Counted from the first letter of the stretch, positions 1 to 15,159 are shown. The stretch: DNA of 15,159 bases from a virus (IMGVR_UViG_2711768072_000011); one strand, 5' to 3'. Made by a program: numbers and translations. Notes: generated from the letters alone by a model not told the origin.

Positions 1-15
1 AGAAACTGACAGGCC

Positions 16-294
16 TCATCGAGTGTGAGGCTGTATGATTCCATGGTTACCTCTGCTTTTTGAACGCATGTCACGTAACTTCTTAATGTGTTCTGCCGTT
101 TCGATCTCTTCTGCTATCCGATCTGCATCAGCTTTATTCACAGGTTCAAAGTCATGATTAAAGCGGAACATGCTGGCGATACATGTTCTGCCTTTTCGGA
201 TGTAGTGAACTTTGTTGTGGGTAGAACGCAGGATTTTGCAGGGAGTGCCGTGGTGGTCGACGTACCAGGTGTTAGGAAAAATGATTCTGAACAT
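16..294 (-). CDS. Hypothetical phage early-left protein, 92 aa, Cys/His-rich (possibly an Ea8.5-like zinc-binding protein)
   Basis: Complete ORF on the same strand as the exo/bet operon; contains several His and Cys in the N-terminal half (HHGTPC...H...H...C). Assignment to Ea8.5 is by size and position only and is not verified. Confidence 0.45.
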   Translation of the reverse strand: MFRIIFPNTWYVDHHGTPCKILRSTHNKVHYIRKGRTCIASMFRFNHDFEPVNKADADRIAEEIETAEHIKKLRDMRSKSRGNHGIIQPHTR

Positions 295-341
295 TTTTAC
301 ACCTCAGTTGGACGATGTTGAAATTTGCTGCTTTGAGGCCA

Positions 342-560
342 TCACAATCCCCATTGTTTGTTCTTAAGTTCGATCTCCTCCTGGCAACTTGCACAAGTCC
401 GACAACCCTGAACGGCCAGGCGTCTTCGTTCATCTATGGGATCGCCACACTCACAACAATGAGTGGCAGATATAACCTGGTGGTTCAGACGACGCATTTT
501 TATTGCTGTATTGCGCTGTAATTCTTCGATTTCTGATGCTGAATCAATGATGTCTGCCAT
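342..560 (-). CDS. TraR/DksA-family C4 zinc-finger protein, 72 aa
   Basis: Translation has a CxxC...(17 aa)...CxxC motif (CECGDPIDERRRLAVQGCRTCASC), which resembles the zinc finger of F-plasmid TraR and of phage-encoded TraR-like RNAP-binding proteins. Same strand and operon context as the Red genes. Confidence 0.6.
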   Translation of the reverse strand: MADIIDSASEIEELQRNTAIKMRRLNHQVISATHCCECGDPIDERRRLAVQGCRTCASCQEEIELKNKQWGL

Positions 561-658
561 CTTCCATTAATCCCTGAATTGTTGGTTAATACGCTTGAGG
601 GTGAATGCGAATAATAAAAAAGGAGCCTGTAGCTCCCTGATGATTTTGCTTTTCATGT

Positions 659-940
659 TCATCGCTCCTTAAAGACGCCGTTTAACATGCCGATCGCCAG
701 GCTTAAATGAGTCGGTGTGAATCCCATCAGCGTTACCGTTTCGCGGTGCTTCTTAAGTACGCTACGGCAAATGTCATCGACGTTTTTATCCGGAAACTGC
801 TGTCTGGCTTTTTTGATTTCAGAATTAGCCTGACGGGCAATGCTGCGAAGGGCGTTTTCTTGCTGAGGTGTCATTGAACAAGCCCCATGTTGGCAAGCAT
901 AAGCACACAGAATATGAAGCCCGCTGCCAGAAAAATGCAT
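659..940 (-). CDS. Hypothetical small early protein (93 aa from the first ATG; alternative start at 874 giving 71 aa)
   Basis: Complete ORF between the TraR-like gene and the orf63-like gene on the operon strand. Neither start has a strong Shine-Dalgarno sequence. Confidence 0.4.
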   Translation of the reverse strand: MHFSGSGLHILCAYACQHGACSMTPQQENALRSIARQANSEIKKARQQFPDKNVDDICRSVLKKHRETVTLMGFTPTHLSLAIGMLNGVFKER

Positions 941-950
941 TCAGTGGTTG

Positions 951-1142
951 TCATACCTGGTCTCTCTCATCTGCTTCTGCTTTCGCCACCATCATTTCCA
1001 GCTTTTGTGAAAGGGATGCGGCTAACGTATGAAATTCTTCGTCTGTTTCTACTGGTATTGGCACAAACCTGACTCCAATTTGAGCGAGGCTATGTGCCAT
1101 CTCGATACTCGTTCTTAACTCAACGGGAGATGCTTTGTGCAT
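951..1142 (-). CDS. Lambda orf63-like small protein, 63 aa
   Basis: 63-aa ORF ([23 protein letters not shown]...) in the position and with the length of lambda orf63, upstream of the orf60a-like gene and exo. Confidence 0.6.
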   Translation of the reverse strand: MHKASPVELRTSIEMAHSLAQIGVRFVPIPVETDEEFHTLAASLSQKLEMMVAKAEADERDQV

Positions 1143-1297
1143 ACAGCTCCCCGTTTATTATTTATCTCCTCAGCCAGCCGCTGTGCTTTCAGGGGATTTC
1201 GGATAACAGAAAGGCCGGGAAATACCCAGCCTCGCTTTGTAACGGAGTAGACGAAAGTGATCGCGCCTACCCGGATATTATCGTGAGGATGCTTCAT
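1115..1297 (-). CDS. Lambda orf60a-like small protein, 60 aa
   Basis: ORF 1115..1303 contains [19 protein letters not shown]...; starting at the second Met gives 60 aa, with the start overlapping the exo stop, as in lambda. Confidence 0.55.
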
Positions 1298-1974
1298 CGC
1301 CATTGCTCCCCAAATACAAAACCAATTTCAGCCAGTGCCTCGTCCATTTTTTCGATGAACTCCGGCACCATCTCGTCAAAACTCGCCATGTACTTTTCAT
1401 CCCGCTCAATCACGACATAATGCAGGCCTTCACGCTTCATACGCGGGTCATAGTTGGCAAAGTACCAGGCATCTTTTCGTATCACCCACATGCTGTACTG
1501 CACCTGGGCCATGTAAGCCGATTTTATGGCCTCGAAACCACCGAGCCGGAACTTCATGAAATCCCGTGAGGTAAACGGGCATTTCAGTTCAAGGCCATTG
1601 CCGTCACTGCATAAACCATCGGGAGAGCAGGCGGTGCGCATACTTTCGTCGCGATAGATGATCGGGGATTCAGTAACATTCACGCCGGAAGTGAACTCAA
1701 AGAGGGCTCTGGCGTCGTTCTCGTACTGTTTTCCCCAGGCCAGCGCCTTAGCGTTAACTTCCGGAGCCACACCGGTGCAAACCTCGGCAAGCAGGGTGTG
1801 GAAGTAGGACATTTTCATGTCAGGCCATTTCTTTCCGGAGCGGGGTTTTGCTATCACATTGTGAACTTCTGAAGCGGTGATGACGCCGAGCCGTAATTTG
1901 TGCCACGCATCATCCCCCTGTTCGACAGCTCTCACGTCGATCCCGGTACGCTGCAGGATAATGTCCGGTGTCAT
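1294..1974 (-). CDS. exo: Lambda exonuclease (Red alpha), 226 aa
   Basis: 226-aa translation [44 protein letters not shown]... matches lambda Exo over its full length as I recall it. Its start overlaps the bet stop (ATGA-type coupling). Confidence 0.95.
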
Positions 1975-2756
1975 GCAGCCACCTTCTGTTCAGAGGCTTT
2001 CTGTTTCAGGAATCCAAGAGCTTTCACTGCTTCGGCCTGTGTCAGTTCCGACGATGCGCGAATGTCGCGGCGAAATATCTGGGAACAGAGCGGCAATAAG
2101 TCGTCATCCCATGTTTTGTCCAGGGCAATCAGCAGAGTGTTAATCTCCTGCATGGTTTCATCGTTAACCGGAGTGATGTCGCGTTCCGGCTGACGTTCTG
2201 CAGTGTATGCGGTATTTTCGACAATGCGCTCGGCTTCATCCTTGTCATAGATACCCGCAAATCCGAAGGCGAGACGGGCACACTGAATCATGGCTTTATG
2301 CCGTAACATCCGTTTAGGATGCGACTGCCACGGCCCCGTGATTTCTCTGCCTTCACGGGTTTTGAATGGTTCGCGGCGGCATTCATCCATCCACTCGGTA
2401 ACGCAGATCGGATGATTACGGTCCTTGCGGTAAATCCGGCATGTGCAGGATTCATTGTCCTGCTCAAAGTCCATGCCATCAAACTGCTGGTTTTCATTGA
2501 TGATGCGGGACCAGCCATCAACGCCCACCACCGGAACGATGCCGTTCTGCTTATCAGGGAAGGCGTAAATTTCTTTCGTCCACGGATTAAGGCCGTACTG
2601 GTTGGCAACGATCAGTAATGCGATGAACTGCGCATCGCTGGCATCACCTTTAAATGCCGTCTGGCGAAGAGTGGTGATCAGTTCCTGTGGGTCGACAGAA
2701 TCCATGCCGACACGTTCAGCCAGCTTCCCAGCCAGCGTTGCGAGTGCTGTACTCAT
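1971..2756 (-). CDS. bet: Red beta single-strand annealing protein (Bet), 261 aa
   Basis: 261-aa translation [66 protein letters not shown]... matches lambda Bet. Gene order exo-bet-gam is as in lambda. Confidence 0.95.
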
Positions 2757-2761
2757 CCGTT

Positions 2762-2873
2762 TTATACCTCTGAATCAATATCAACCTGGTGGTGAGCAAT
2801 GGTTTCAACCATGTACCGGATGTGTTCTGCCATGCGCTCCTGAAACTCAACATCGTCATCAAACGCACGGGTA
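2762..2873 (-). pseudogene. gam: gam remnant: only the 3' end (about 35 C-terminal codons) of the Gam gene
   Basis: Reverse-complement translation from the stop at 2762-2764 gives ...[36 protein letters not shown], the Gam C-terminus. Homology stops near 2868-2874, where IS2 sequence begins, and there is no start codon. Confidence 0.8.
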
Positions 2874-3566
2874 TGGGCGCTGCTTCGCAGACAGGCAGAA
2901 CTTGATGGTATGCCTGCGATCAATGCCAAACGTGTTTACCGGATCATGCGCCAGAATGCGCTGTTGCTTGAGCGAAAACCTGCTGTACCGCCATCGAAAC
3001 GGGCACATACAGGCAGAGTGGCTGTGAAAGAAAGTAATCAGCGATGGTGCTCTGACGGGTTCGAGTTCCGCTGTGATAACGGAGAAAAACTGCGAGTCAC
3101 GTTCGCGCTGGACTGCTGTGACCGTGAGGCACTGCACTGGGCGGTCACTACGGGCGGCTTCAACAGTGAAACAGTACAGGACGTCATGCTGGGAGCGGTG
3201 GAACGCCGCTTCGGCAACGAGCTTCCGGCGTCTCCAGTAGAGTGGCTGACGGATAATGGTTCATGCTACCGGGCTAATGAAACACGGCAGTTTGCCCGGA
3301 TGTTGGGGCTTGAACCGAAGAGCACGGCGGTGCGGAGTCCGGAGAGTAACGGCATAGCAGAGAGCTTCGTGAAAACGATAAAGCGTGACTACATCAGTGT
3401 CATGCCCAAACCAGACGGGTTAACGGCAGCAAAGAACCTTGCAGAGGCGTTCGAGCATTATAACGAATGGCATCCGCATAGTGCACTGGGTTATCGCTCG
3501 CCACGGGAATATCTACGGCAGCAAGCCAGTAATGGGTTAAGTGATAACAGGTGTCTGGAAATATAG
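2868..3566 (+). pseudogene. insD: Truncated IS2 transposase InsD (OrfB), N-terminal part missing
   Basis: The frame is continuous from the gam/IS2 junction through the listed 2910..3566 ORF. The Met at 2910 is internal to InsD and not a real start. The expected upstream insC and frameshift window are absent. Confidence 0.8.
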
Positions 3567-3577
3567 GGGCAAATCCA
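2868..3577 (+). mobile_element. Partial IS2 (right-hand ~0.7 kb: 3' part of insD plus right terminal repeat); left half including insC is missing
   Basis: Plus-strand translation from the junction reads ...[47 protein letters not shown]... to ...[11 protein letters not shown], the C-terminal ~230 residues of IS2 InsD. The sequence then ends in ...TAGGGGCAAATCCA, which I recall as the IS2 right terminus, directly followed by emrE-internal sequence. Confidence 0.85.
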
Positions 3578-3821
3578 ATGGCCATCTGTTGGTACAATTA
3601 TTTGTTATTGTGCATCATTCTGGTTATTAGCTCAGACGCTGGCTTATATTCCTACAGGGATTGCTTATGCTATCTGGTCAGGAGTCGGTATTGTCCTGAT
3701 TAGCTTACTGTCATGGGGATTTTTCGGCCAACGGCTGGACCTGCCAGCCATTATAGGCATGATGTTGATTTGTGCCGGTGTGTTGATTATTAATTTATTG
3801 TCACGAAGCACACCACATTAA
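3578..3821 (+). pseudogene. emrE: emrE 3' fragment (small multidrug resistance transporter), first ~33 codons replaced by IS2
   Basis: The frame reads WPSVGTIICYCASFWLLAQTLAYIPTGIAYAIWSGVGIVLISLLSWGFFGQRLDLPAIIGMMLICAGVLIINLLSRSTPH*, which is EmrE from about residue 31 to the C-terminus. There is no start codon, and the IS2 end lies immediately upstream. Confidence 0.85.
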
Positions 3822-3851
3822 AATAATTTGTTTCTAAACGACTAAAATATG

Positions 3852-3892
3852 GAGGCTCTTATATTTATATGAGCCTCGTTTTATGCTTTTTG
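3852..3892 (+). terminator. Putative rho-independent terminator downstream of emrE
   Basis: Inverted repeat GAGGCTC (3853-3859) / GAGCCTC (3871-3877) with an AT-rich loop, followed by GTTTTATGCTTTTTG. Confidence 0.5.
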
Positions 3893-4076
3893 TTAATGTC
3901 TTTATTTTTTATGTATTCTTTTGTGCTTTCAAGATTATGGCGTAAGAAAATTGCAATACGATTATTGTTGTATATTCAAGATAATGTGACCTTAATTGTC
4001 TTTTTAAATAAAAAATAAACAAAAAATTATATCCCACCACTAAGGTTTATAAAAGCATACGTTAGCAGGTGTCACC

Positions 4077-5603
4077 ATGAAAAAAGCCATAGCATATATG
4101 CGATTTTCATCACCAGGTCAGATGTCTGGCGACTCATTAAACCGACAGAGAAGACTTATTGCTGAATGGTTAAAGGTAAATAGTGATTATTATCTTGATA
4201 CCATAACATATGAAGATTTAGGATTAAGTGCATTCAAAGGAAAGCATGCACAATCAGGAGCTTTTTCGGAATTTTTAGATGCTATAGAGCATGGTTATAT
4301 ATTGCCAGGAACTACATTGTTAGTTGAAAGTCTGGACAGACTTTCAAGAGAAAAAGTCGGTGAAGCGATTGAACGTCTGAAATTGATTTTGAATCACGGT
4401 ATTGATGTTATAACTCTTTGCGACAATACAGTCTATAATATTGACTCTTTGAATGAGCCATATTCATTAATAAAAGCCATACTTATAGCACAAAGGGCAA
4501 ATGAAGAAAGCGAGATAAAGTCAAGTCGGGTTAAATTATCATGGAAGAAAAAACGGCAGGATGCACTGGAATCAGGTACGATTATGACGGCGTCTTGTCC
4601 GAGATGGCTCTCCTTAGATGACAAAAGAACGGCTTTTGTTCCAGACCCCGACAGGGTGAAAACTATTGAGCTAATTTTTAAACTCAGGATGGAAAGGCGC
4701 TCATTGAATGCAATAGCCAAGTATTTAAATGATCATGCTGTAAAGAATTTCTCAGGAAAAGAAAGTGCATGGGGACCTTCTGTAATTGAAAAATTATTAG
4801 CGAATAAAGCTCTGATAGGTATATGCGTACCTTCATATCGTGCAAGAGGGAAAGGGATAAGTGAAATCGCTGGCTATTATCCCAGAGTCATATCAGATGA
4901 TTTGTTTTACGCTGTACAGGAAATTCGGTTGGTACCTTTTGGTATTAGCAATAGTAGCAAGAATCCTATGCTAATAAATCTACTTCGAACAGTTATGAAG
5001 TGTGAGGCTTGTGGTAATACCATGATTGTTCATGCGGCATCTGGAAGTTTGCATGGCTATTATGTTTGTCCGATGAGAAGATTACATCGATGTGACAGGC
5101 CATCAATAAAAAGAGATTTGGTTGATTATAATATCATTAATGAATTGCTTTTTAATTGTAGCAAAATTCAACCAGTTGAAAACAAGAAAGATGCTAATGA
5201 AACTTTAGAGTTAAAAATTATTGAGCTTCAGATGAAAATTAATAATTTAATCGTTGCATTGTCTGTCGCGCCTGAAGTTACCGCTATAGCAGAGAAAATA
5301 AGACTATTAGATAAGGAATTACGAAGGGCTTCGGTATCATTGAAAACTTTGAAGAGTAAAGGTGTAAATTCATTCAGTGATTTTTATGCTATTGACTTAA
5401 CCAGTAAAAATGGACGAGAGTTATGCCGTACACTTGCCTATAAAACATTCGAAAAAATCATAATTAATACGGATAATAAAACCTGTGATATCTATTTTAT
5501 GAATGGCATTGTTTTTAAACACTATCCTTTAATGAAAGTAATATCCGCCCAGCAGGCGATAAGTGCTCTCAAATATATGGTTGATGGTGAGATTTATTTC
5601 TAA
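4077..5603 (+). CDS. ybcK: Large serine recombinase (resolvase/invertase-type catalytic domain, recombinase domain and zinc ribbon), 508 aa
   Basis: N-terminus AYMRFSSPGQ...LLVESLDRLSREK resembles the serine-recombinase catalytic motifs. A C-terminal Cys cluster (CEACGNT...YYVCPMRRLHRC) fits a zinc ribbon. Length and sequence fit DLP12 YbcK. AT-rich codon usage. Confidence 0.85.
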   Translation: MKKAIAYMRFSSPGQMSGDSLNRQRRLIAEWLKVNSDYYLDTITYEDLGLSAFKGKHAQSGAFSEFLDAIEHGYILPGTTLLVESLDRLSREKVGEAIERLKLILNHGIDVITLCDNTVYNIDSLNEPYSLIKAILIAQRANEESEIKSSRVKLSWKKKRQDALESGTIMTASCPRWLSLDDKRTAFVPDPDRVKTIELIFKLRMERRSLNAIAKYLNDHAVKNFSGKESAWGPSVIEKLLANKALIGICVPSYRARGKGISEIAGYYPRVISDDLFYAVQEIRLVPFGISNSSKNPMLINLLRTVMKCEACGNTMIVHAASGSLHGYYVCPMRRLHRCDRPSIKRDLVDYNIINELLFNCSKIQPVENKKDANETLELKIIELQMKINNLIVALSVAPEVTAIAEKIRLLDKELRRASVSLKTLKSKGVNSFSDFYAIDLTSKNGRELCRTLAYKTFEKIIINTDNKTCDIYFMNGIVFKHYPLMKVISAQQAISALKYMVDGEIYF

Positions 5604-6067
5604 ATAATGATCTCGGATTTTAAGTTATGCTATGGTGATAAAGTGCAAGACAGAATTAATTATCTTTGACGAAACTTAATGGGTAATTACTTTGTTTGCT
5701 CCCACAAGCGAGTTTTGTACGGCTGTATTGGGGTAGTAAATGAGCTATACAATCTTAATCATTTGTTAGGTGAGAACTCTTGGTCGCAGATTCAAATACT
5801 GAAAATACGTGACAAATTATTATGAGCAAAATGGTGTATGTCACGTATTTTGAATGGTAGGTTAAAAAATAACACCGACTTTCGTAGGTATTACTAATAA
5901 TAAAGCAGAGTTTTTAGATAGTATCAATGTGCTTTGTGTATATTGTGGCAAATAATTGGGTTGGGGGTACAATTGTGATTGCTTTTGCATGAACATTGCG
6001 CCTTTATGCATAATGAGATAAAGGAATATCAAATAAAATAACGATAGGTCATAACAAAGAGGTTTTT

Positions 6068-6619
6068 ATGAAAACACTTATCGTTTCAACTGTATTGGCA
6101 TTCATAACATTTTCTGCGCAGGCTGCAGCATTTCAGGTCACTAGTAATGAAATAAAAACAGGAGAGCAACTTACAACGTCTCATGTCTTTTCTGGATTTG
6201 GGTGTGAAGGTGGTAATACATCGCCCTCATTAACCTGGTCTGGTGTTCCTGAAGGTACCAAAAGCTTTGCCGTAACTGTATATGATCCAGATGCACCTAC
6301 AGGCAGTGGTTGGTGGCATTGGACTGTTGTTAATATTCCAGCAACAGTAACATATTTGCCCGTTGATGCAGGGAGACGTGATGGAACAAAACTGCCGACT
6401 GGTGCTGTTCAAGGCCGAAATGATTTTGGCTATGCTGGGTTTGGTGGCGCATGTCCTCCTAAAGGAGATAAACCACATCATTACCAGTTTAAAGTATGGG
6501 CTCTAAAAACTGAAAAGATTCCTGTAGATTCTAACTCCAGCGGAGCGTTAGTTGGTTATATGCTTAATGCTAATAAAATCGCAACCGCTGAGATAACACC
6601 AGTTTATGAGATAAAGTAG
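6068..6619 (+). CDS. ybcL: Periplasmic PEBP/RKIP-family (UPF0098) protein with signal peptide, 183 aa
   Basis: N-terminal signal peptide (MKTLIVSTVLAFITFSAQA) and conserved PEBP-like segments (DPDAP...WWHW...GACPPKGDKPHHYQF). Matches DLP12 YbcL in length and sequence as I recall it. Confidence 0.85.
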   Translation: MKTLIVSTVLAFITFSAQAAAFQVTSNEIKTGEQLTTSHVFSGFGCEGGNTSPSLTWSGVPEGTKSFAVTVYDPDAPTGSGWWHWTVVNIPATVTYLPVDAGRRDGTKLPTGAVQGRNDFGYAGFGGACPPKGDKPHHYQFKVWALKTEKIPVDSNSSGALVGYMLNANKIATAEITPVYEIK

Positions 6620-6628
6620 GGTGAGAGT

Positions 6629-7426
6629 ATGCTGGCAAGAGGTAAGACTAACTTAAAGATCGAAGAAATACGGATGCATAAACATCATGAGATTCATAGG
6701 GTTAAGCCTCTTATGCCAGCTTTGTGTCGTATCCGTCAGGGAAAGAAAGTTATCAATTGGGAGACGCATACTTTAACTGTTGATAATAATCAAATAATAT
6801 TATTTCCTTGTGGTTATGAATTTTATATTGAGAATTATCCTGAAGCAGGGCTTTATCTTGCAGAAATGCTTTACTTACCCATTGATTTAATTGAGAGTTT
6901 CCAAAAACTTTATACGGTAACTGATCAAATACGTAACAAAACAAGTTTCTTTTTACCTCAGAATCCTGAGTTAATATATTGTTGGGAGCAACTAAAAACA
7001 TCTGTTTCCCGAGGCTTCTCAACTAAAATTCAGGAGCACTTAGCAATGGGCGTTCTACTTTCGTTAGGAGTGAATCATGTTAATCATTTACTTTTATCAT
7101 ATAGTAAACAATCATTGATAAGTCGTTGTTATAACCTGCTGCTATCCGAACCCGGCACAAAATGGACAGCAAACAAGGTTGCTCGATATCTCTACATTTC
7201 TGTTTCTACATTACATCGCCGTCTAGCAAGCGAGGGGGTAAGTTTCCAAAGTATACTGGACGATGTGAGGTTAAATAATGCGTTGTCTGCTATACAAACG
7301 ACGGTAAAACCTATAAGCGAGATTGCCAGAGAAAATGGTTATAAGTGTCCTTCTCGTTTTACTGAAAGATTTCATAATCGTTTTAATATAACACCAAGAG
7401 AGATAAGAAAAGCTTCCAGAGAGTAA
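6629..7426 (+). CDS. ybcM: AraC/XylS-family transcriptional regulator, 265 aa
   Basis: C-terminal helix-turn-helix region typical of AraC family ([21 protein letters not shown]...[31 protein letters not shown]). AG-rich ribosome-binding site upstream. Position and length fit DLP12 ybcM. Confidence 0.8.
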
Positions 7427-7542
7427 AAGTGTTTTAAGAAGGAGCAATTCTATCGATTTTGATTTTGGGAAATCAACACGGCATAATTATGTCACCGGAG
7501 CCTGAACAACTCCGGTGACTTCTGCGCTAAACGGGGACGTTT

Positions 7543-7644
7543 ATGCGCACATACAATCCAAACTATCTTCTCCTTTCACAGATGCAGAAATGCACCTGCA
7601 ATTCTTTGCATCTAGCGTTTGACCTCTGCGGAGGTGAAGCGTGA
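7543..7644 (+). CDS. ylcH: Small ORF, 33 aa (ylcH-like), with its stop overlapping the ybcN start
   Basis: ATG at 7543 to TGA at 7642-7644 encodes [33 protein letters not shown]. Position corresponds to the small ylcH gene of DLP12. No clear ribosome-binding site, so low confidence. Confidence 0.3.
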
Positions 7645-8096
7645 ACCTCCCACAAGACGGCATCAAATTACATCGCGGCAACTTCACCGCTATCGGCCAG
7701 CAGATCCAGCCTTATCTGGAGGAAGGCAAATGCTTTCGCATGGTGCTTAAACCGTGGCGCGAGAGACGCAGTCTTTCCCAGAATGCACTCAGCCACATGT
7801 GGTACAGCGAAATCAGTGAATACCTCATCAGCAAGGGTAAAACGTTCGCTACTCCAGCTTGGGTAAAAGATGCTCTCAAACACACATATCTCGGTTATGA
7901 AACCAAAGACCTGGTTGATGTCGTAACCGGTGATATCACCACTATCCAGTCGTTACGCCATACCTCCGATCTTGATACCGGAGAGATGTATGTCTTCCTG
8001 TGTAAGGTTGAAGCCTGGGCGATGAATATTGGTTGCCACCTGACTATTCCACAGAGCTGCGAGTTTCAGCTGCTGCGCGACAAGCAGGAGGCGTAA
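7641..8096 (+). CDS. ybcN: NinB/Orf-family recombination protein (YbcN, DNA base-flipping protein), 151 aa, GTG start
   Basis: GTG start preceded by GGAGGTG. Contains the NinB-like RxRSLSQN motif. Length and sequence fit DLP12 YbcN. First gene of the nin-like block. Confidence 0.8.
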
Positions 8097-8266
8097 TGGC
8101 TACACCGCTTATTCGTGTCATGAACGGACACATCTACAGAGTACCAAATCGTCGTAAGCGTAAACCTGAGCTGAAGCCATCCGAAATACCAACACTGCTC
8201 GGATATACCGCCAGCTTGGTTGATAAAAAATGGTTGCGACTGGCAGCAAGGAGGAGTCATGGCTGA
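8096..8266 (+). CDS. ninE: NinE-family small protein, 56 aa
   Basis: ATG overlaps the ybcN stop (TAATG) and follows an AGGAGG ribosome-binding site. Translation [56 protein letters not shown]. Confidence 0.7.
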   Translation: MATPLIRVMNGHIYRVPNRRKRKPELKPSEIPTLLGYTASLVDKKWLRLAARRSHG

Positions 8267-8549
8267 TTTGAGAAAAGCAGCGCGTGGTCGGGAATGCCAG
8301 GTAAGAATCCCTGGCGTATGTAATGGCAACCCTGAAACGTCTGTACTGGCACATATCCGGCTGGCTGGATTGTGCGGTACCGGTATCAAACCGCCAGACC
8401 TGATTGCCACCATTGCATGTTCTGCCTGCCACGACGAAATCGACCGCCGCACACATTTTGTCGATGCTGCATATGCAAAAGAATGCGCGCTGGAAGGTAT
8501 GGCGAGAACACAGGTTATCTGGCTGAAAGAGGGGGTTATTAAGGCGTGA
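8259..8549 (+). CDS. ybcO: DUF1364-family putative nuclease YbcO, 96 aa
   Basis: Start [14 protein letters not shown]... is preceded by a strong AAGGAGG ribosome-binding site. Cys/His-rich (C..C...H...C..C..H). Overlaps the ninE 3' end and the rusA start. Confidence 0.75.
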
Positions 8550-8908
8550 ATACCTACAGCATCACATTACCCTGGCCTCCGAGCAATAATCGCTATTACC
8601 GCCATAATCGCGGGCGCACGCACATCAGCGCAGAGGGGCAGGCATACCGCGATAACGTCGCCCGAATCATTAAAAACGCAATGCTGGATATCGGCCTGGC
8701 TATGCCTGTGAAAATCCGCATTGAGTGCCACATGCCGGATCGCCGTCGCCGTGACCTGGATAATCTGCAAAAAGCCGCTTTTGACGCACTCACTAAAGCA
8801 GGTTTCTGGCTGGATGATGCTCAGGTCGTTGATTACCGCGTTGTGAAGATGCCCGTTACCAAAGGTGGGAGGCTGGAACTGACCATCACCGAAATGGGGA
8901 ATGAATGA
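8546..8908 (+). CDS. rusA: RusA Holliday-junction resolvase, 120 aa, GTG start
   Basis: Translation [103 protein letters not shown]... matches RusA. Confidence 0.9.
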
Positions 8909-9045
8909 TGTTTGAGTTTTATATGGCAGAACTTCTTCGCCACCGCTGGGGGCATCTGCGCTTATATCGTTTCCCCGGTTCTGTTTTGACCGATTACCGA
9001 ATACTGAAGAATTACGCCAAAACCCTGACAGGAGCAGGAGTATGA
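8905..9045 (+). CDS. ylcG: Small protein YlcG-like, 46 aa
   Basis: ATG overlaps the rusA stop. Encodes [46 protein letters not shown], preceded by GGGGA. Position as in DLP12. Confidence 0.5.
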
Positions 9046-9130
9046 AGTCAGAGATAACAATCAACTAATACTGTTTTGTTGATTTTTGCTTGTGATTGGC
9101 GTTCTGGTCTGATTTTTGTGGAGTAAGTTG

Positions 9131-9514
9131 ATGCGTGATATTCAGATGGTTCTTGAGCGTTGGGGAGCGTGGGCGGCTAATAATCATGAAGATGTGACCT
9201 GGTCGTCCATTGCCGCCGGTTTTAAGGGATTAATTCCTTCAAAAGTAAAATCTCGCCCGCAATGTTGTGACGATGACGCGATGATCATTTGCGGGTGCAT
9301 GGCCCGTCTGAAAAAGAACAACAGCGATTTGCACGATTTATTAGTAGATTATTATGTAGTCGGTATGACATTCATGTCACTGGCAGGTAAGCATTGCTGC
9401 TCTGATGGTTATATCGGGAAAAGGTTACAGAAGGCTGAGGGCATAATTGAAGGGATGTTAATGGCATTAGATATCCGGTTAGAGATGGATATCGTTGTTA
9501 ATAACTCTAATTAA
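9131..9514 (+). CDS. quuD: Late-gene antiterminator Q (phage 82/21-type), 127 aa
   Basis: Translation [36 protein letters not shown]... fits the Q82-family antiterminator QuuD. GGAG lies 8 nt upstream of the ATG at 9131; the upstream ATG at 9116 is a less likely start. Confidence 0.8.
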
Positions 9515-9539
9515 TATGCCAATTGTTTACTAAAAATTA

Positions 9540-9566
9540 TTAAAAATGGGGCGTTGAGACGCCCCC
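9540..9566 (-). terminator. Putative intrinsic terminator acting on the minus strand (candidate nmpC terminator)
   Basis: Hairpin GGGGCGT/ACGCCCC (9548-9565) with a 4-nt loop. On the minus strand it is followed by a T-rich run (complement of CTAAAAATTATTAAAAAT). Confidence 0.45.
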
Positions 9567-9654
9567 AAAAATAAAGGGTAATATATAACAGAAGGTTTAT
9601 ATAGTTAGAAGCAAGGTTGTGCTTCTAAAGGAAGTGGCTTGAGGGAGCCACTTA

Positions 9655-9695
9655 TATGTTGGGGAGGCAACGCCTCCCGCAACATATCTTTTTCG
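9655..9695 (+). terminator. Putative plus-strand intrinsic terminator downstream of Q (tR'-like), within the late promoter-proximal region
   Basis: GC-rich hairpin GGGAGGC-AAC-GCCTCCC (9662-9678), extended by ATGTTG/CAACAT arms, followed by ATCTTTTTCG. It lies just past the nmpC stop, so it may also act bidirectionally. Confidence 0.55.
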
Positions 9696-9703
9696 TAATC
9701 AGA

Positions 9704-10801
9704 TTAGAACTGGTAAACCAGACCTACAGCAACGATGTCATCAGTGCTTACACCGAGTGCTTTAGTGAAGTCATTTTTGTCAAGCAGGTTGATTTTGTAA
9801 TCAACGAAAGTAGACATATTTTTGTTGAAGTAATAGGTTGCACCTACATCAACATATTTGACTAAGTCCTGATCGCCCCATACTCCAAGATCTTTACCTT
9901 TAGATTGCAGGTAAGCAACGGACGGACGCAGACCGAAATCGAACTGATATTGTGCAACAGCTTCGAAGTTTTGGGCTTTATTAGCAACGAAGTGATCAGC
10001 AAATACAGTCATATTCTGGGTTTCAGAATAGGTAGTGGCCAGGTAAATGTTGTTAGCGTCATATTTCAGACCTGCGGCCCAAACTTCTGCATTTTTACCG
10101 GAAGCAAATACTTCAGGAAGAACTTTCCCTGCATTAACTTGAGTGTCGGTACGATCAGATTTCGCATAAGTTGCACCGATACCGAATCCTTCGTATTCAT
10201 AGGTAGCAGAGAAACCGAAGCCATCACCGTTACCTTCAGTGTAGTTATCGAAATCGCTACGATCGTTTTTGCCTTGGTACTGAGCAGCAAAGTTCAGACC
10301 ATCAACCAGACCAAAGAAGTCGTTGTTACGATAGGTTGCAACACCAGTGGTGCGACCAGTCATGAACACATCTGTTTGGGTCCAGGTATCGCCACCGAAT
10401 TCTGGCAGAACGTCAGTCCACGCACCGATGTCGTATGCTACACCGTAGTTACGGCCGTAATCGATTGAGCCGTAGTCACCGAATTTCAGGCCTGCAAATG
10501 CAAGACGGGTTTTGTCTTTGGAGGAACCTTGAGATTCAGCGCGGTTGCCTTTGAATTCATATTCCCACTGACCGAAACCAGTCAGTTGATCGTTGATTTG
10601 GGTTTCACCTTTGAAGCCAAGACGGGCATAAGTAGTATCACCATCATCTGCATCATTAGAGGAGAAGTAGTGCTTGGCATTAACTTTCCCGTACAGATCC
10701 AGCTTGTTACTGTCTTTATTATAAATTTCAGCTGCCTGAGCAGACATCGCCATCAGTACTGATGCAGCTACAGCAGAAATTGCCACTGTTAATTTTTTCA
10801 T
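9704..10801 (-). CDS. nmpC: OmpC/PhoE-family general porin (NmpC / Lc-type), 365 aa, apparently intact
   Basis: Signal peptide [23 protein letters not shown] followed by porin motifs, ending in the C-terminal ...VGLVYQF beta-signal. Full-length ORF with no IS interruption, located antisense between Q and the lysis genes. Confidence 0.9.
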
Positions 10802-11389
10802 CGTGAGCCCTTTTTTTTGAACTATTATTAAAAAATGATGTCACTGCGCGATAAATATTCATCTAATCAATGTGATTATTTCAAGATGTAAGTTTTGGTT
10901 TCTCGTTTGATTTGTGAAGTAGATCTCTATTTTTATCTGAACTTTTTTCTATCGAATCCTATTCATAGCTCTTGGCTGAATAAAAATAAATCTATTAGCC
11001 AATTTATATTAACGGCTGTTATTTATAAGTGCTCTATAATTTGAAGGTTCAATTTAAATCGGCTAAAAATAACACTGGAAATTATTTGTTGGTTATTTGT
11101 TGAGGTTTTCTTATGTATTTGTGGTGGTGTTTTGAACACTCGGTAGCATTCTCATAAATATCATTCAGTGGTTTACGTACGTAAAAAATTGGTTATGCTG
11201 TTAAGAGTGGTTACTTCGTCACACAGCTTAACCCGCCGTCGAGCTGGTTTTTCCATTTTTTGAGTCTCGATATTAGCTGATAACTCAATACCTGAGTTAT
11301 TCACTGACTCCGAGTCTGTTACGTTTCTGCTTTTTTGCGATACGTTGTATTCCCTCAATTTACACCCGCTTTGTCTGCGAGGTGGGGTT

Positions 11390-11605
11390 ATGAAATCCAT
11401 GGATAAGTTAACAACGGGTGTCGCCTATGGCACCTCAGCAGGTAGTGCCGGTTACTGGTTTTTACAGCTGCTCGATAAAGTCACGCCCTCACAGTGGGCA
11501 GCAATAGGTGTGCTGGGTAGCCTGGTATTTGGCCTGCTGACGTACCTGACAAACCTTTATTTCAAGATTAAAGAAGATAAGCGCAAGGCTGCGAGAGGTG
11601 AATAA
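11390..11605 (+). CDS. essD: Phage-21 S-type pinholin, 71 aa, with dual-start motif
   Basis: Translation [71 protein letters not shown]. The Met1-Lys-Ser-Met4 start is the S21 holin/antiholin dual-start arrangement. It sits directly upstream of the endolysin. Confidence 0.85.
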
Positions 11606-12102
11606 TGCCTCCATCATTACGAAAAGCCGTTGCTGCTGCTATTGGTGGCGGAGCAATTGCTATAGCATCAGTGTTAATTACTGGCCCAAGTGGTAACGAT
11701 GGTCTGGAAGGTGTCAGCTACATACCATACAAAGATATTGTTGGTGTATGGACTGTATGTCACGGGCATACAGGAAAAGACATCATGCTCGGTAAAACGT
11801 ATACCAAAGCAGAATGCAAAGCCCTCCTGAATAAAGACCTTGCCACGGTCGCCAGACAAATTAACCCGTACATCAAAGTCGATATACCGGAAACAATGCG
11901 CGGCGCTCTTTACTCATTCGTTTACAACGTGGGTGCTGGCAATTTCAGAACATCGACGCTTCTTCGCAAAATAAACCAGGGCGATATCAAAGGCGCATGT
12001 GATCAGCTACGTCGCTGGACATATGCTGGCGGTAAGCAATGGAAAGGTCTCATGACTCGTCGTGAGATTGAGCGTGAAATCTGTTTGTGGGGTCAGCAAT
12101 GA
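11605..12102 (+). CDS. rrrD: SAR endolysin (T4-lysozyme-like, phage 21 R-type), 165 aa
   Basis: N-terminal Gly/Ala-rich signal-anchor-release segment ([16 protein letters not shown]), and residues E35, D44, T50 in the positions of the R21 catalytic triad. Confidence 0.9.
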
Positions 12103-12560
12103 ACAGAGTAACCGCGATTATCTCCGCTCTGGTTATCTGCATCATCGTCGGCCTGTCATGGGCTGTTAATCATTACCGTGATAACGCCATTACCTACAAA
12201 GCCCAGCGCGACAAAAATGCCAGAGAACTGAAGCTGGCGAACGCGGCAATTACTGACATGCAGATGCGTCAGCGTGATGTTGCTGCGCTCGATGCAAAAT
12301 ACACGAAGGAGTTAGCTGATGCGAAAGCTGAAAATGATGCTCTGCGTGATGATGTTGCCGCTGGTCGTCGTCGGTTGCACATCAAAGCAGTCTGTCAGTC
12401 AGTGCGTGAAGCCACCACCGCCTCCGGCGTGGATAATGCAGCCTCCCCCCGACTGGCAGACACCGCTGAACGGGATTATTTCACCCTCAGAGAGAGGCTG
12501 ATCACTATGCAAAAACAACTGGAAGGAACCCAGAAGTATATTAATGAGCAATGCAGATAG
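12099..12560 (+). CDS. rzpD: Rz inner-membrane spanin (i-spanin), 153 aa
   Basis: ATG overlaps the endolysin stop (ATGA). N-terminal transmembrane segment, then a coiled-coil-rich periplasmic region. Position after the endolysin. Confidence 0.85.
12319..12501 (+). CDS. rzoD: Rz1 outer-membrane lipoprotein spanin (o-spanin), 60 aa, embedded in the +1 frame of Rz
   Basis: Translation [24 protein letters not shown]... has a lipobox (VVGC) and a proline run (PPPPP). Entirely contained within rzpD in a different frame, the classic Rz/Rz1 arrangement. Confidence 0.8.
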
Positions 12561-12591
12561 AGCTGCCCATATCGATGGGCAACTCATGCAA

Positions 12592-12885
12592 TTATTGTGA
12601 GCAATACACACGCGCTTCCAGCGGAGTATAAATGCCTAAAGTAATAAAACCGAGCAATCCATTTACGAATGTTTGCTGGGTTTCTGTTTTAACAACATTT
12701 TCTGCGCCGCCACAAATTTTGGCTGCATCAACAGTTTTCTCCTGTCCAATTCCCGAAACGAAGAAGTGATGGGTGATGGTTTCCTTTGGTGTTACTGCTG
12801 TCGGTTTGTTTCCAACAGTAAACGTCTGTTGAGCACATCCTGTAATAAGCATTGCCAGAGCGGCAGAAAACAACATTTTTTTCAT
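12592..12885 (-). CDS. borD: Bor-family outer-membrane lipoprotein, 97 aa
   Basis: From the Met at 12885: MKKMLFSAALAMLITGCAQQ..., with lipobox LITGC. Matches lambda Bor/DLP12 BorD. Antisense to the late operon. Confidence 0.85.
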   Translation of the reverse strand: MKKMLFSAALAMLITGCAQQTFTVGNKPTAVTPKETITHHFFVSGIGQEKTVDAAKICGGAENVVKTETQQTFVNGLLGFITLGIYTPLEARVYCSQ

Positions 12886-13247
12886 CTTATTATCCTGCAT
12901 TGTTAAAAACGGCAGAATCCTATGTGACAACAATTAAACGATAGTTAAATGGATTGATGAAAATTAAAACTATATAGGTGTACGCTCAGACTATTGGAGG
13001 AAGTTGGGGACACTCAGAATCCTGTGGAATGAAATAAACCGGTCTATCCGTCTATTACCCTTTTAGCTGCGCTGTATCGTCGCCGTATTCCCGCATTAAC
13101 CATGACCGTAGCCCGACGGGGAATTCCTTCTGCGTGAGTGTGCGGGAATAATCAAAAACGATGCACACCGGGTTTTACTGTGCTGACAGACGCAGGGTTA
13201 CCCTCATAGTCGCTTTTCCGGTGCGATGGTGGAAGAAACCGGGATGT

Positions 13248-13442
13248 TCATCCATCATCACTCTGGATTGATGTATATGCTCTCTTTTCTGACGTTAGTC
13301 TCCGACGGCAGGCTTCAATGACCCAGGCTGAGAAATTCCCGGACCCTTTTTGCTCAAGAGCGATGTTAATTTGTTCAATCATTTGGTTAGGAAAGCGGAT
13401 GTTGCGGGTTGTTGTTCTGCGGGTTTTGTTCTTCGTTGACAT
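13248..13442 (-). CDS. Small ribbon-helix-helix-like protein, 64 aa (YlcI/DUF3950-like; the last gene before cos in lambda-type genomes)
   Basis: Translation MSTKNKTRRTTTRNIRFPNQMIEQINIALEQKGSGNFSAWVIEACRRRLTSEKRAYTSIQSDDG. A basic N-terminus followed by a beta-strand/helix pattern resembles RHH (Arc/CopG-like) DNA-binding proteins. Family assignment is from memory. Confidence 0.5.
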   Translation of the reverse strand: MSTKNKTRRTTTRNIRFPNQMIEQINIALEQKGSGNFSAWVIEACRRRLTSEKRAYTSIQSDDG

Positions 13443-13589
13443 GAGGTTGCCCCGTATTCAGTGTCGCTGATTTGTATTGTCTGAAGTTGTTTTTACGTTA
13501 AGTTGATGCAGATCAATTAATACGATACCTGCGTCATAATTGATTATTTGACGTGGTTTGATGGCGTAGATGCACGTTGTGACATATAG

Positions 13590-13830
13590 ATGATAATTAT
13601 TATCATTTTGCGGGTCCTTTCCGGCGATCCGACAGGTTACGGGGCGGCGACCTCTCGGGTTTTCGCTATTTATGAAAATTTTCCGGTTTAAGGCATTTCC
13701 GTTCTTCTTCGTTGTAACTTAATGTTTTTATTTAAAATACCCCCTGAAAAGAAAGGAAACGACAGGTGCTGAAAACGGGCTTTTTGGCCTCTGTCGTTTC
13801 CTTTCTCTGTTTTTGTCCGTGGAATGAACA
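13590..13830 (+). other. Lambda-type cos site (cosQ-cosN-cosB); predicted 12-nt cohesive end GGGCGGCGACCT at 13642-13653
   Basis: Sequence ...GATAATTATTATCATTTTGCGGGTCCTTTCCGGCGATCCGACAGGTTACGGGGCGGCGACCTCTCGGGTTTTCGCTATTTATGAAAATTTTCCGG... is nearly identical to the lambda right-end/left-end junction as I recall it, immediately upstream of the Nu1 homologue. Confidence 0.8.
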
Positions 13831-14376
13831 ATGGAAGTCAACAAAAAGCAGCTGGCTGACATTTTCGGTGCGAGTATCCGTACCATTCAGAACTGGCAGG
13901 AACAGGGAATGCCCGTTCTGCGAGGCGGTGGCAAGGGTAATGAGGTGCTTTATGACTCTGCCGCCGTTATAAGATGGTATGCCGAAAGGGATGCTGAAAT
14001 TGAGAACGAAAAGCTGCGCCGGGAAGTTGAAGAACTGCGGCAGGCCAGCGAGGCAGATCTCCAGCCAGGGACTATTGAGTACGAACGCCATCGACTTACG
14101 CGTGCGCAGGCCGACGCACAGGAGCTGAAAAATGCCAGAGACTCCGCTGAAGTGGTGGAAACCGCATTCTGTACTTTCGTGCTGTCGCGGATCGCAGGTG
14201 AAATTGCCAGTATTCTCGACGGGATCCCCCTGTCGGTGCAGCGGCGTTTTCCGGAACTGGAAAACCGACATGTTGATTTCCTGAAACGGGATATCATCAA
14301 AGCCATGAACAAAGCAGCCGCGCTGGATGAACTGATACCGGGGTTGCTGAGTGAATATATCGAACAGTCAGGTTAA
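13831..14376 (+). CDS. nohD: Terminase small subunit (lambda Nu1 homologue), 181 aa
   Basis: Translation MEVNKKQLADIFGASIRTIQNWQEQGMPVLRGGGKGNEVLYDSAAVIRWYAERDAEIENEKLRREVEELRQ... is essentially lambda gpNu1 (winged-helix N-terminus). Follows cos. Confidence 0.9.
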   Translation: MEVNKKQLADIFGASIRTIQNWQEQGMPVLRGGGKGNEVLYDSAAVIRWYAERDAEIENEKLRREVEELRQASEADLQPGTIEYERHRLTRAQADAQELKNARDSAEVVETAFCTFVLSRIAGEIASILDGIPLSVQRRFPELENRHVDFLKRDIIKAMNKAAALDELIPGLLSEYIEQSG

Positions 14377-15159
14377 CAGGCTGCGGCATTTTGTCCGCGC
14401 CGGGCTTCGCTCACTGTTCAGGCCGGAGCCACAGACCGCCGTTGAATGGGCGGATGCCAATTACTATCTCCCGAAAGAATCCGCATACCAGGAAGGGCGC
14501 TGGGAAACACTGCCCTTTCAGCGGGCCATCATGAATGCGATGGGCAGCGACTACATCCGTGAGGTGAATGTGGTGAAGTCTGCCCGTGTCGGTTATTCCA
14601 AAATGCTGTTGGGTGTTTATGCCTACTTCATAGAGCATAAGCAGCGCAACACCCTTATCTGGTTGCCGACGGATGGTGATGCCGAGAACTTTATGAAAAC
14701 CCACGTTGAGCCGACTATTCGTGATATTCCGTCGCTGCTGGCGCTGGCCCCGTGGTATGGCAAAAAGCACCGGGATAACACGCTCACCATGAAGCGTTTC
14801 ACAAAGCGTATTGAAGGCTCGGTCTGGCCAAAGTCCATCCGTGGCTCCACGCCCAAAGTGAGAGGCACCTGTCAGATTGAGCGTGCAGCCAGTGAATCCC
14901 CGCATTTTATGCGTTTTCATGTTGCCTGCCCGCACTGCGGGGAGGAGCAGTACCTTAAATTTGGCGATAAAGAGACGCCGTTTGGCCTCAAATGGACGCC
15001 GGATGATCCCTCCAGCGTGTTTTATCTCTGCGAACATAATGCCTGCGTCATCCGCCAGCAGGAGCTGGACTTCACTGATGCCCGTTATATCTGCGAAAAG
15101 ACCGGGATCTGGACCCGTGATGGCATTCTCTGGTTTTCGTCATCCGGTGAAGAGATTGA
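14351..15159 (+). CDS. Terminase large subunit (lambda gpA-like), 5' part; the frame stays open to the window edge but appears to carry a ~47-codon in-frame deletion
   Basis: GTG start overlaps the Nu1 3' end. Translation MNISNSQVNRLRHFVRAGLRSLFRPEPQTAVEWADANYYLPKESAYQEGRWETLPFQRAIMNAMGSDYIREVNVVKSARVGYS... matches gpA including the Walker A-like KSARVGYS. After ...TLTMKRFT the sequence jumps to KRIEGSVWPKSIRGSTPKVRG..., skipping the segment that in lambda gpA (from memory) contains the Walker B/E179 region. No stop codon in frame within the window; not listed in the ORF track because it runs off the end. Confidence 0.75.
   Translation, partial: MNISNSQVNRLRHFVRAGLRSLFRPEPQTAVEWADANYYLPKESAYQEGRWETLPFQRAIMNAMGSDYIREVNVVKSARVGYSKMLLGVYAYFIEHKQRNTLIWLPTDGDAENFMKTHVEPTIRDIPSLLALAPWYGKKHRDNTLTMKRFTKRIEGSVWPKSIRGSTPKVRGTCQIERAASESPHFMRFHVACPHCGEEQYLKFGDKETPFGLKWTPDDPSSVFYLCEHNACVIRQQELDFTDARYICEKTGIWTRDGILWFSSSGEEI

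Follow-up and report, generated by a model that had tools for sequence, protein, structure and literature searches.

How does a prophage come to hold an insertion sequence (IS) that is broken at an internal point, fused there to a truncated phage gene, and still joined by its other, intact end to a second truncated gene? This question is raised by a viral sequence of 15,159 nucleotides (nt), IMGVR_UViG_2711768072_000011, hereafter called the window, which is an argU-integrated, DLP12-type lambdoid prophage of an E. coli lineage, and in which remnants of gam, IS2 and emrE lie end to end between positions 2762 and 3821. Coordinates are those of the whole window unless another locus is named, IS2 is numbered nt 1-1331, and L003 denotes the corresponding locus of the intact relative, E. 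coli JNE141411. The arrangement is probably a two-step decay scar, in which IS2 entered emrE and a deletion then ran from the TA at IS2 nt 626-627 into a TA in gam, the endpoint within IS2 being non-random.

Three truncated genes had been recognized here by an earlier, sequence-only reading, and alignments and profile searches now place both breakpoints to the base. Base-level alignment to the intact relative indicates that the gam homology (minus strand, 2762-2873) ends at 2873, while comparison with full-length IS2 copies places the start of the IS2 homology (plus strand) at 2868 (IS2 nt 622). The two overlap in CGGGTA (2868-2873), bases already suspected of being shared, and setting the window against both intact gam and full IS2 reveals this motif in both parental sequences, at nt 622-627 in IS2, with one copy left at this first junction, as is expected of short-homology recombination. 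Further imperfect similarity between gam and IS2 flanks the motif, the last two bases of which are the TA of IS2 nt 626-627. Excluding the overlap, the IS2 segment spans 2874-3577 (nt 628-1331); with it, i.e., from 2868 (nt 622-1331), it agrees with the IS2 of strain 210205630 at 710 of 710 positions and with the CFSAN029787 copy at 96.5%, so that its IS2 origin is no longer in doubt. At the second junction, position 3578 corresponds to emrE nt 90 and to L003 10739, and the first whole codon of emrE is that of W31 (3579-3581), in agreement with the interruption proposed at about codon 31. The emrE remnant (3578-3821, plus strand) comprises nt 90-333, i.e., codons 31-110 and the stop, and covers positions 31-110 of the 110 in the NCBIfam EmrE profile NF042984 (E=5e-51).

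The gam remnant retains the stop codon and codons 63-98 (TRAFDDD...DSEV), while codons 1-61 are gone and only the last base of codon 62 is left; the Gam protein of the intact relative, of the type that in lambda inhibits host nucleases, has 98 residues, and that of the window is thus not full-length, matching only positions 63-98 of the 98 in Pfam Gam PF06064 (E=7e-20). The right inverted repeat of IS2, an element of the IS3 family, is whole (3537-3577) and matches full copies, ending in ...GGGGCAAATCCA (the shorter tip being ...CAAATCCA) with CA-3' at 3577. The remnant keeps the C-terminal 230-232 codons of InsD/OrfB, with a stop codon at 3564-3566, and matches positions 70-301 of 301 in the IS2 TnpB profile NF006918; the Pfam domains rve and rve_3 are retained, and the HTH_21 match is partial and below the cut-off. 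Absent from it are the left inverted repeat (TAGACTGGCC...) and promoter, the homology starting at nt 622 with gam upstream, as well as orfA, the frameshift site and a full orfB, i.e., the makings of the OrfAB transposase. Because the left repeat, orfA, the frameshift site and the IS2 promoter are missing, the IS2 stump is immobile. No 5-bp target duplication accompanies it, the left flank reading ...ACGGG(TA) and the right flank ATGGC.

The truncation of an IS at an internal point had been regarded as unusual, a view that the wider IS2 record contradicts. Including the window, IS2 is cut at the same TA (nt 626-627) in ten independent contexts, and in each truncated copy the IS2 part starts with TGGGCGCTGC at nt 628 and is always preceded by TA. 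A first sampling comprised loci with a 218-residue IS2 remnant open reading frame (ORF), aligned on IS2, in which only breakpoints at nt 569-663 were possible, the nearest in-frame start being at nt 568; five of the six real junctions, the window counted, fall at TA/TGGGCG (P about 1e-7 over the 95 allowed positions), and the 218-residue ORF is not specific to the scar of the window. A sixth context, the Qin prophage of K-12, came from an unbiased sample of IS2 copies in GTDB representative genomes, and four further contexts came from metagenomes scanned for a boundary with a non-IS2 base at nt 625, while in IMG/VR this boundary is confined to the Qin locus and the scar of the window itself. 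The truncated copies lie in loci L004/L011, L006, L007 and L012 (IS2 nt 628 at locus position 7965), L034 (at 1112), L209-L212 and L089 (about 2198-2900).

These copies share a number of features beyond the boundary itself. The bases held in common with IS2 to the left of nt 628 amount to the TA alone in seven of the ten contexts, to six bases in two and to nine in one, and the TA is native to the partner sequence in all three testable cases (gam, the Qin exonuclease gene and cbeA). In each of the five contexts compared, the 5-bp sequences that border IS2 on the left and on the right do not match, the right end of IS2 is a clean terminus wherever the contig reaches it, and the truncated copies stem from both IS2 sequence types. 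A single example of the reciprocal product was also found, in which IS2 nt 1-627, ending ...CGGGTA, is joined to a phage tail-fibre/esterase-like ORF (L208 1983-2609). Other apparent left truncations were set aside: those at nt 15, 24 and 118-121 in the unbiased samples appear, from the flank sequence and the end of IS1, to be IS1 insertions into IS2, and those at nt 10, 64, 73, 220, 345, 444 and 450 are indel artefacts of ungapped extension. As a separate observation, one of the truncated copies (L012 7965-9002) consists of an IS2 stump (nt 626-1331) followed by TT and the left end of another IS2, a head-to-tail arrangement with a 2-bp spacer that resembles a dimer or minicircle junction and suggests that IS2 is actively transposing there.

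The Qin prophage of K-12 provides the closest comparison. There, ydfE (an exonuclease without its C-terminus) is followed by TA, IS2 nt 626-1331 and intQ without its N-terminus, and approximately 2.2 kb has been lost relative to an intact Qin-like prophage, namely the remainder of the exonuclease gene, xis and the beginning of int. The IS2 fragment in question, annotated between ydfE and intQ (insD-7, b1578), resembles that of the window in that a phage recombination gene is truncated at a TA, the IS2 breakpoint is the same and the intact right end abuts a truncated gene, whereas the prophage and partner genes are different and only TA, rather than CGGGTA, is shared. In DH10B and many K-12 derivatives, a second, full IS2 lies inverted in intQ, with some 320 bp between it and the Qin stump to its left (L089 3223-4451).

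The junctions show a crossover fixed within the TA, a TA in the partner, frequent additional homology on the left, both polarities and the removal of a few kb of neighboring DNA, the cause being inferred. It is therefore well supported that this TA is an IS2-specific hotspot and that the breakpoint is a property of IS2 rather than a product of chance, given that nine further, unrelated contexts have their boundary at this position. This modifies the microhomology-mediated join that had been suggested for the window: the sharing of CGGGTA and the retention of one copy stand, while the endpoint, being the same in ten contexts, is not an arbitrary one. A generic microhomology deletion, the kind of join suggested by the sequence-only reading, in which RecA-independent slipped-strand or end-joining recombination struck CGGGTA by chance after IS2 had landed in emrE, with no influence of IS2 on the site, would account for the exact 6-bp overlap in both parents (at least six shared bases being expected at a random junction with P about 1.3e-3) and for the imperfect similarity around it, and such overlaps are established as typical of illegitimate recombination in E. 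coli (bioRxiv 10.1101/2023.06.07.543989). It is nonetheless unlikely, as it does not foresee nine unrelated loci with the same IS2 nucleotide boundary, seven of them sharing TA only, nor the concentration of five of six junctions at one of 95 positions (P about 1e-7).

As to how IS2 is broken at this position, we tentatively propose, with a confidence that falls somewhat short of even, an undescribed site-specific break at TA nt 626-627 (CGGGTA/TGGGCG). This would be a transposase-linked, cryptic-end reaction that proceeds in either direction and yields a 706-bp stump (nt 626-1331) or the reciprocal nt 1-627, with the loss of a few kb; the window, Qin and at least eight other loci would be its products, and IS2 would be a recurrent agent of prophage and island decay. 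The internal TA probably acts as the breakpoint from which deletions leave the element, in either direction, to end at a nearby TA, often with extra matching bases. That the transposase drives the break is a guess, according to which it may take TA-TGGGCGCTG...CAGACA as a poor left end and pair it with the real right end, giving an adjacent deletion. The break site has TA at its tip, as does the left end of IS2, along with a TGG(G/C)C(G/C)C stretch and a CAGACA like that of both terminal repeats, and the pairing of a cryptic left end with the real right end would account for the fact that the right junction is intact and the boundary fixed, that no duplication is present and that adjacent DNA is deleted. 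Searchable literature on IS2 with emrE, on IS2 truncation and on cryptic ends holds no description of this breakpoint, older subscription-journal papers being outside its reach.

A number of observations weigh against a reaction of this type. The break site is a weak look-alike, outranked by other internal sequences as a match to either repeat, and the CAGACA in it lies 5-6 bp nearer to the tip than in the real ends of IS2. Strand transfer by the transposase would require neither the 6-9 matching bases seen in three of the ten contexts nor a TA in the partner, and among 90 loci none has the right end joined to the internal site in a circle-like manner. The partner TA and the extra homology, left unexplained by a cryptic end, point to annealing, e.g., template switching, which has been proposed for copy-out elements, microhomology joins having been linked to copy-out transposition (bioRxiv 10.1101/2023.06.07.543989).

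Several other candidates for the break were considered and rejected. A hairpin or cruciform finds no backing in the folding of the 58-nt region as DNA (z = 0.48 relative to shuffles), and a cryptic end defined by sequence similarity alone is unconvincing, as each terminal repeat has a better match elsewhere inside IS2. A mini-IS2 (nt 626-1331) that moved on its own would leave matching 5-bp flanks, which are lacking in five contexts, and a junction of the right end with the internal site, of which the 90 loci hold none. Chi, cosN-like nicking, the gyrase consensus, sites of Gin/Pin, resolvase or primase, and self-targeting by clustered regularly interspaced short palindromic repeats (CRISPR) are a poor fit, and an Rfam search of the window returned nothing.

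Known IS-associated deletions resemble the scar in part. In the adjacent deletions attributed to IS1, IS903, IS150 and other elements of the IS3 family, those of the IS3 family being documented (PMC11708052), one flank is likewise kept, the other is replaced by DNA from a few kb away and no duplication is left. In a classical adjacent deletion, however, the IS is whole and the endpoint is at its terminus, whereas in the window the endpoint is fixed internally (nt 626-628) and the left 626 bp are lost; the right terminus is intact, and the flank found there may be the original insertion site. The loss of ISApl1 from Tn6330 and the excisions and deletions of IS629 stimulated by the IS-excision enhancer (IEE) are comparable in that 2-6 bp short-homology joins form at or into an IS of a copy-out family, and these events are thought to arise during transposition-linked replication (bioRxiv 10.1101/2023.06.07.543989). 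They differ in that they remove the IS and have endpoints scattered near its ends, while the scar retains one IS end and its internal endpoint is invariant.

The order of events at the second junction can be read against a concentration of IS2 at emrE, where six independent sites in or next to the gene, the window included, are distributed over two loci, i.e., the argU prophage and the fliE-yedD island. Full IS2 copies are found 126 bp upstream of emrE with the target duplication GTGCC and 13 bp upstream with the target duplication GAAAG, both in related prophages such as those of strains 210205630 and CFSAN029787; in a second emrE-ybcL-ybcM island, which lies beside fliE, at emrE nt 11-17 and nt 45-49; and at the 3' end of this second emrE copy. 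In all six sites the transposase reads toward emrE, and 5-bp target duplications are present in the four that were checked (the sites are L002 5380-6710, L001 5380-6710, L022 4380-5710, L023 4380-5710, L024 about 4259-5590 and window 3577/3578). This cluster could reflect a hot target region or, at the two upstream sites, selection for activation of emrE; activation by an upstream IS2 is on record for acrEF (PMC9783932). Because independent insertions with 5-bp duplications surround emrE, a direct IS2 hit at nt 90-94 would be unremarkable.

In the first step of the proposed history, a full IS2 would have entered emrE at nt 90-94, with ATGGC as the target and its transposase codirectional with emrE, so that ATGGC at 3578-3582 would be the right copy of the target duplication. 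In the second step, of which the junction is observed and the process inferred, a single deletion would have fused the TA of IS2 nt 626-627 to that of gam inside the shared CGGGTA, removing IS2 nt 1-621/627 and 4,864 bp of prophage DNA. Insertion into emrE followed by deletion is the most economical order, and the history suggested previously, an IS2 insertion into emrE with a leftward deletion, remains the best reading in view of the recurrence of IS2 at emrE, although its intermediate was not found. Such an intermediate would show ...GGTTATGGC joined to TAGACTGGCC for the left end of IS2 in emrE, as opposed to ...CAAATCCA joined to ATGGCTTTTTTGC for an IS2 in gam. Two observations count against this order: a full IS2 at emrE nt 90-94 combined with an intact early region is absent from all 5,426 complete genomes searched, and in intact gam the breakpoint is followed by ATGGC, the same five bases that follow the right end of IS2 in emrE. 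Between gam and emrE, the two sites agree at eight of nine positions, GGT(A/T)ATGGC, for which the chance is approximately 1e-3 to 1e-4, and the coincidence of ATGGC therefore allows another order of events, with IS2 first in gam.

Two other histories were weighed against insertion into emrE followed by deletion. According to one, the second junction is itself a deletion endpoint: IS2 would have been upstream of emrE, a deletion adjacent to its right end would have taken about 100-215 bp into emrE, and a separate leftward deletion would have started at nt 626. Related prophages do have full IS2 copies in the same orientation 13 bp and 126 bp upstream of emrE, the copy of 210205630 is identical to the window fragment throughout its 710 positions, and IS3-family adjacent deletions that spare the IS end are documented (PMC11708052). 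This history is distinctly unlikely, however, as it requires one extra event, copies that match this IS2 type at 100% are common while the flanks in 210205630 are only 96.7% identical to the window, and simple insertions inside emrE, with target duplications, are known at nt 11-17 and nt 45-49. According to the other, IS2 would have entered gam at ATGGC, whereupon a 632-bp deletion between the CGGGTA copies would have taken the left duplication with IS2 nt 1-621/627, and a 4.86-kb ATGGC-to-ATGGC deletion would have taken the early region up to emrE nt 90-94. The sequence CGGGTA/ATGGC in intact gam, the ATGGC to the right of IS2 and the match at eight of nine positions are in its favor, but it is very unlikely, since it requires three events, an IS2 at that site in gam occurs in no complete genome, and it disregards the recurrent activity of IS2 around emrE.

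The scar is not confined to the window. Both junction strings are present in GCA_001286425.1, GCA_014399285.1, GCA_012595405.1 and GCA_039059165.1, sister assemblies found via the exact YbcK protein of the window and with contigs that are 99.99-100% identical to it, and a Logan contig (run ERR175737, reported in 11 samples), equally 99.99-100% identical, starts inside IS2 and holds the second junction only. In IMG isolate 2671181019 (UViG_2671181019_000016) both junctions are found within 12 kb of 99.69% identity, after which the sequences diverge; overall, at least five other assemblies or isolates carry the scar, at 99.69-100% identity across 6-12 kb. The divergence of this isolate (L088) begins beyond L088 12002 (window 12343 onward), and the same left and central parts combined with a different late region suggest recombination after the scar had formed. 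Both junctions are absent from all 5,426 complete E. coli genomes, and the string of the first junction occurs in none of 185,579 GTDB species representatives. As the scar recurs in at least five other assemblies while being absent from the complete genomes, it is real, inherited and lineage-specific. An assembly artefact, i.e., a chimeric or collapsed join over IS2 copies with gam, IS2 and emrE really intact, had been named as a concern and can be dismissed, for although IS2 occurs in multiple copies, at which short-read assemblies are often broken or wrongly joined, identical junctions occur in at least five other independently assembled genomes or isolates and in several sequencing runs, on contigs of up to 75 kb, and a collapse would not join unique gam to an internal point of IS2.

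The consequences for the prophage follow from comparison with the intact relative. Everything in the window except the 710 bp of IS2 gives a match of about 98.7% to E. coli chromosomes, the best being JNE141411, which has an intact lambdoid prophage beside tRNA-Arg and intD. In that prophage exo, bet, gam and kil are followed by an S24-peptidase repressor gene, a cro-like gene, ydaT, O, P, ren, emrE, ylcJ and ybcK, then ybcL, ybcM, ybcN, ninE, ybcO, rusA, ylcG, quuD and a porin gene, and finally essD, rrrD, rzpD, iss/bor, ylcI, nohD and the large terminase gene. Window 1-2876 corresponds to L003 3001-5877 and window 3578-14802 to L003 10739-21960, the IS2 fragment replacing L003 5875-10738 (4,864 bp). 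The deleted set comprises gam codons 1-61 with the greater part of codon 62, as well as kil, the repressor gene, the cro-like gene, ydaT, O, P, ren and emrE nt 1-89, which bears out the absence of immunity and replication functions noted from the sequence. Since the immunity region, early promoters and replication genes are deleted, the prophage is locked in place and harmless, while exo, bet, the nin region, rusA, Q, the porin gene and the lysis cassette are retained.

EmrE is a multidrug transporter belonging to the SMR (small multidrug resistance) family, with 110 residues, four transmembrane helices and an essential Glu14 in helix 1. The remnant is in frame behind the stop codon of IS2 orfB and ends with its own stop at 3819-3821, and its first in-frame ATG, GTG or TTG is that of Met91. 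Because residues 1-30 are gone, the start codon with them, and no in-frame start precedes Met91, EmrE is predicted not to be expressible; emrE is, judged from its sequence, dead, the lost residues including Glu14, and the inactivation proposed for this gene is upheld.

On either side of the scar the genes are whole. To the left lie exo (1294-1974, minus strand), which encodes a protein of the lambda exonuclease family with 226 residues (Pfam YqaJ, E=3.9e-29) and has the length of the JNE141411 gene in the retained left arm, and bet (1971-2756, minus strand), a RecT family gene with 261 codons (Pfam RecT, E=2.7e-33), annotated in relatives and the last whole gene before the scar. To the right are ylcJ (3869-4018, plus strand; 49 residues, Pfam YlcJ in identical contigs and annotated in relatives) and ybcK (4077-5603, plus strand), which encodes a large serine recombinase of 508 residues with the Pfam domains Resolvase, Recombinase and Zn_ribbon_recom and, apart from the small ylcJ, is the intact gene nearest to the scar on this side. 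Further to the right, ybcL is intact (6068-6619, 183 residues), whereas that of the closest complete relative has an internal stop, and the prophage porin gene is likewise intact (9704-10801, 365 residues).

The DLP12 prophage of K-12 shares with the window the integration site, as in the intact relative, and the gene order from emrE to nohD (in K-12, intD ... emrE-ybcK-ybcL-ybcM-ybcN-ninE-ybcO-rusA-ylcG-quuD-nmpC-essD-rrrD-rzpD-borD ... nohD), and it too is a defective lambdoid prophage with IS elements next to emrE. Its own interruptions are an IS3 in renD and an IS5 in nmpC, the latter gene being the counterpart of the porin gene. Unlike DLP12, the window has intact exo, bet and porin genes, a single 4.86-kb deletion of the early region at the IS2 stump, and a destroyed emrE.

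A further lesion affects the part of the large terminase gene that lies at the right edge of the window (14351-15159), in which an in-frame deletion of 141 bp has removed residues 152-198 (NGRGFWCLGGKAAKNYREKSVDVAGYDELAAFDEDIEQEGSPTFLGD), with a junction near 14795-14805 that is bordered by similar KRF/KRI codons. In lambda gpA, the corresponding part contains the Walker-B region of the packaging ATPase. Since the two halves lie 141 bp apart, and are never contiguous, in complete genomes that hold both, this deletion is a second lineage-specific decay lesion, and the window hence lacks the intact large terminase subunit that an inducible prophage would have.

Taken alone, the scar is ordinary prophage decay, one more case of a prophage disarmed by an IS and a short homology; the recurrent, site-specific endpoint in IS2 is the added result. 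For annotation, the signature of such events is flank-TA-TGGGCGCTGC without a target duplication. If the proposed break is true, many annotated IS2 fragments of E. coli and Shigella, including one in the K-12 reference, would share one mechanistic origin, and IS2 would have, beside transposition, a second and destructive reaction that removes adjacent DNA and kills the element itself.

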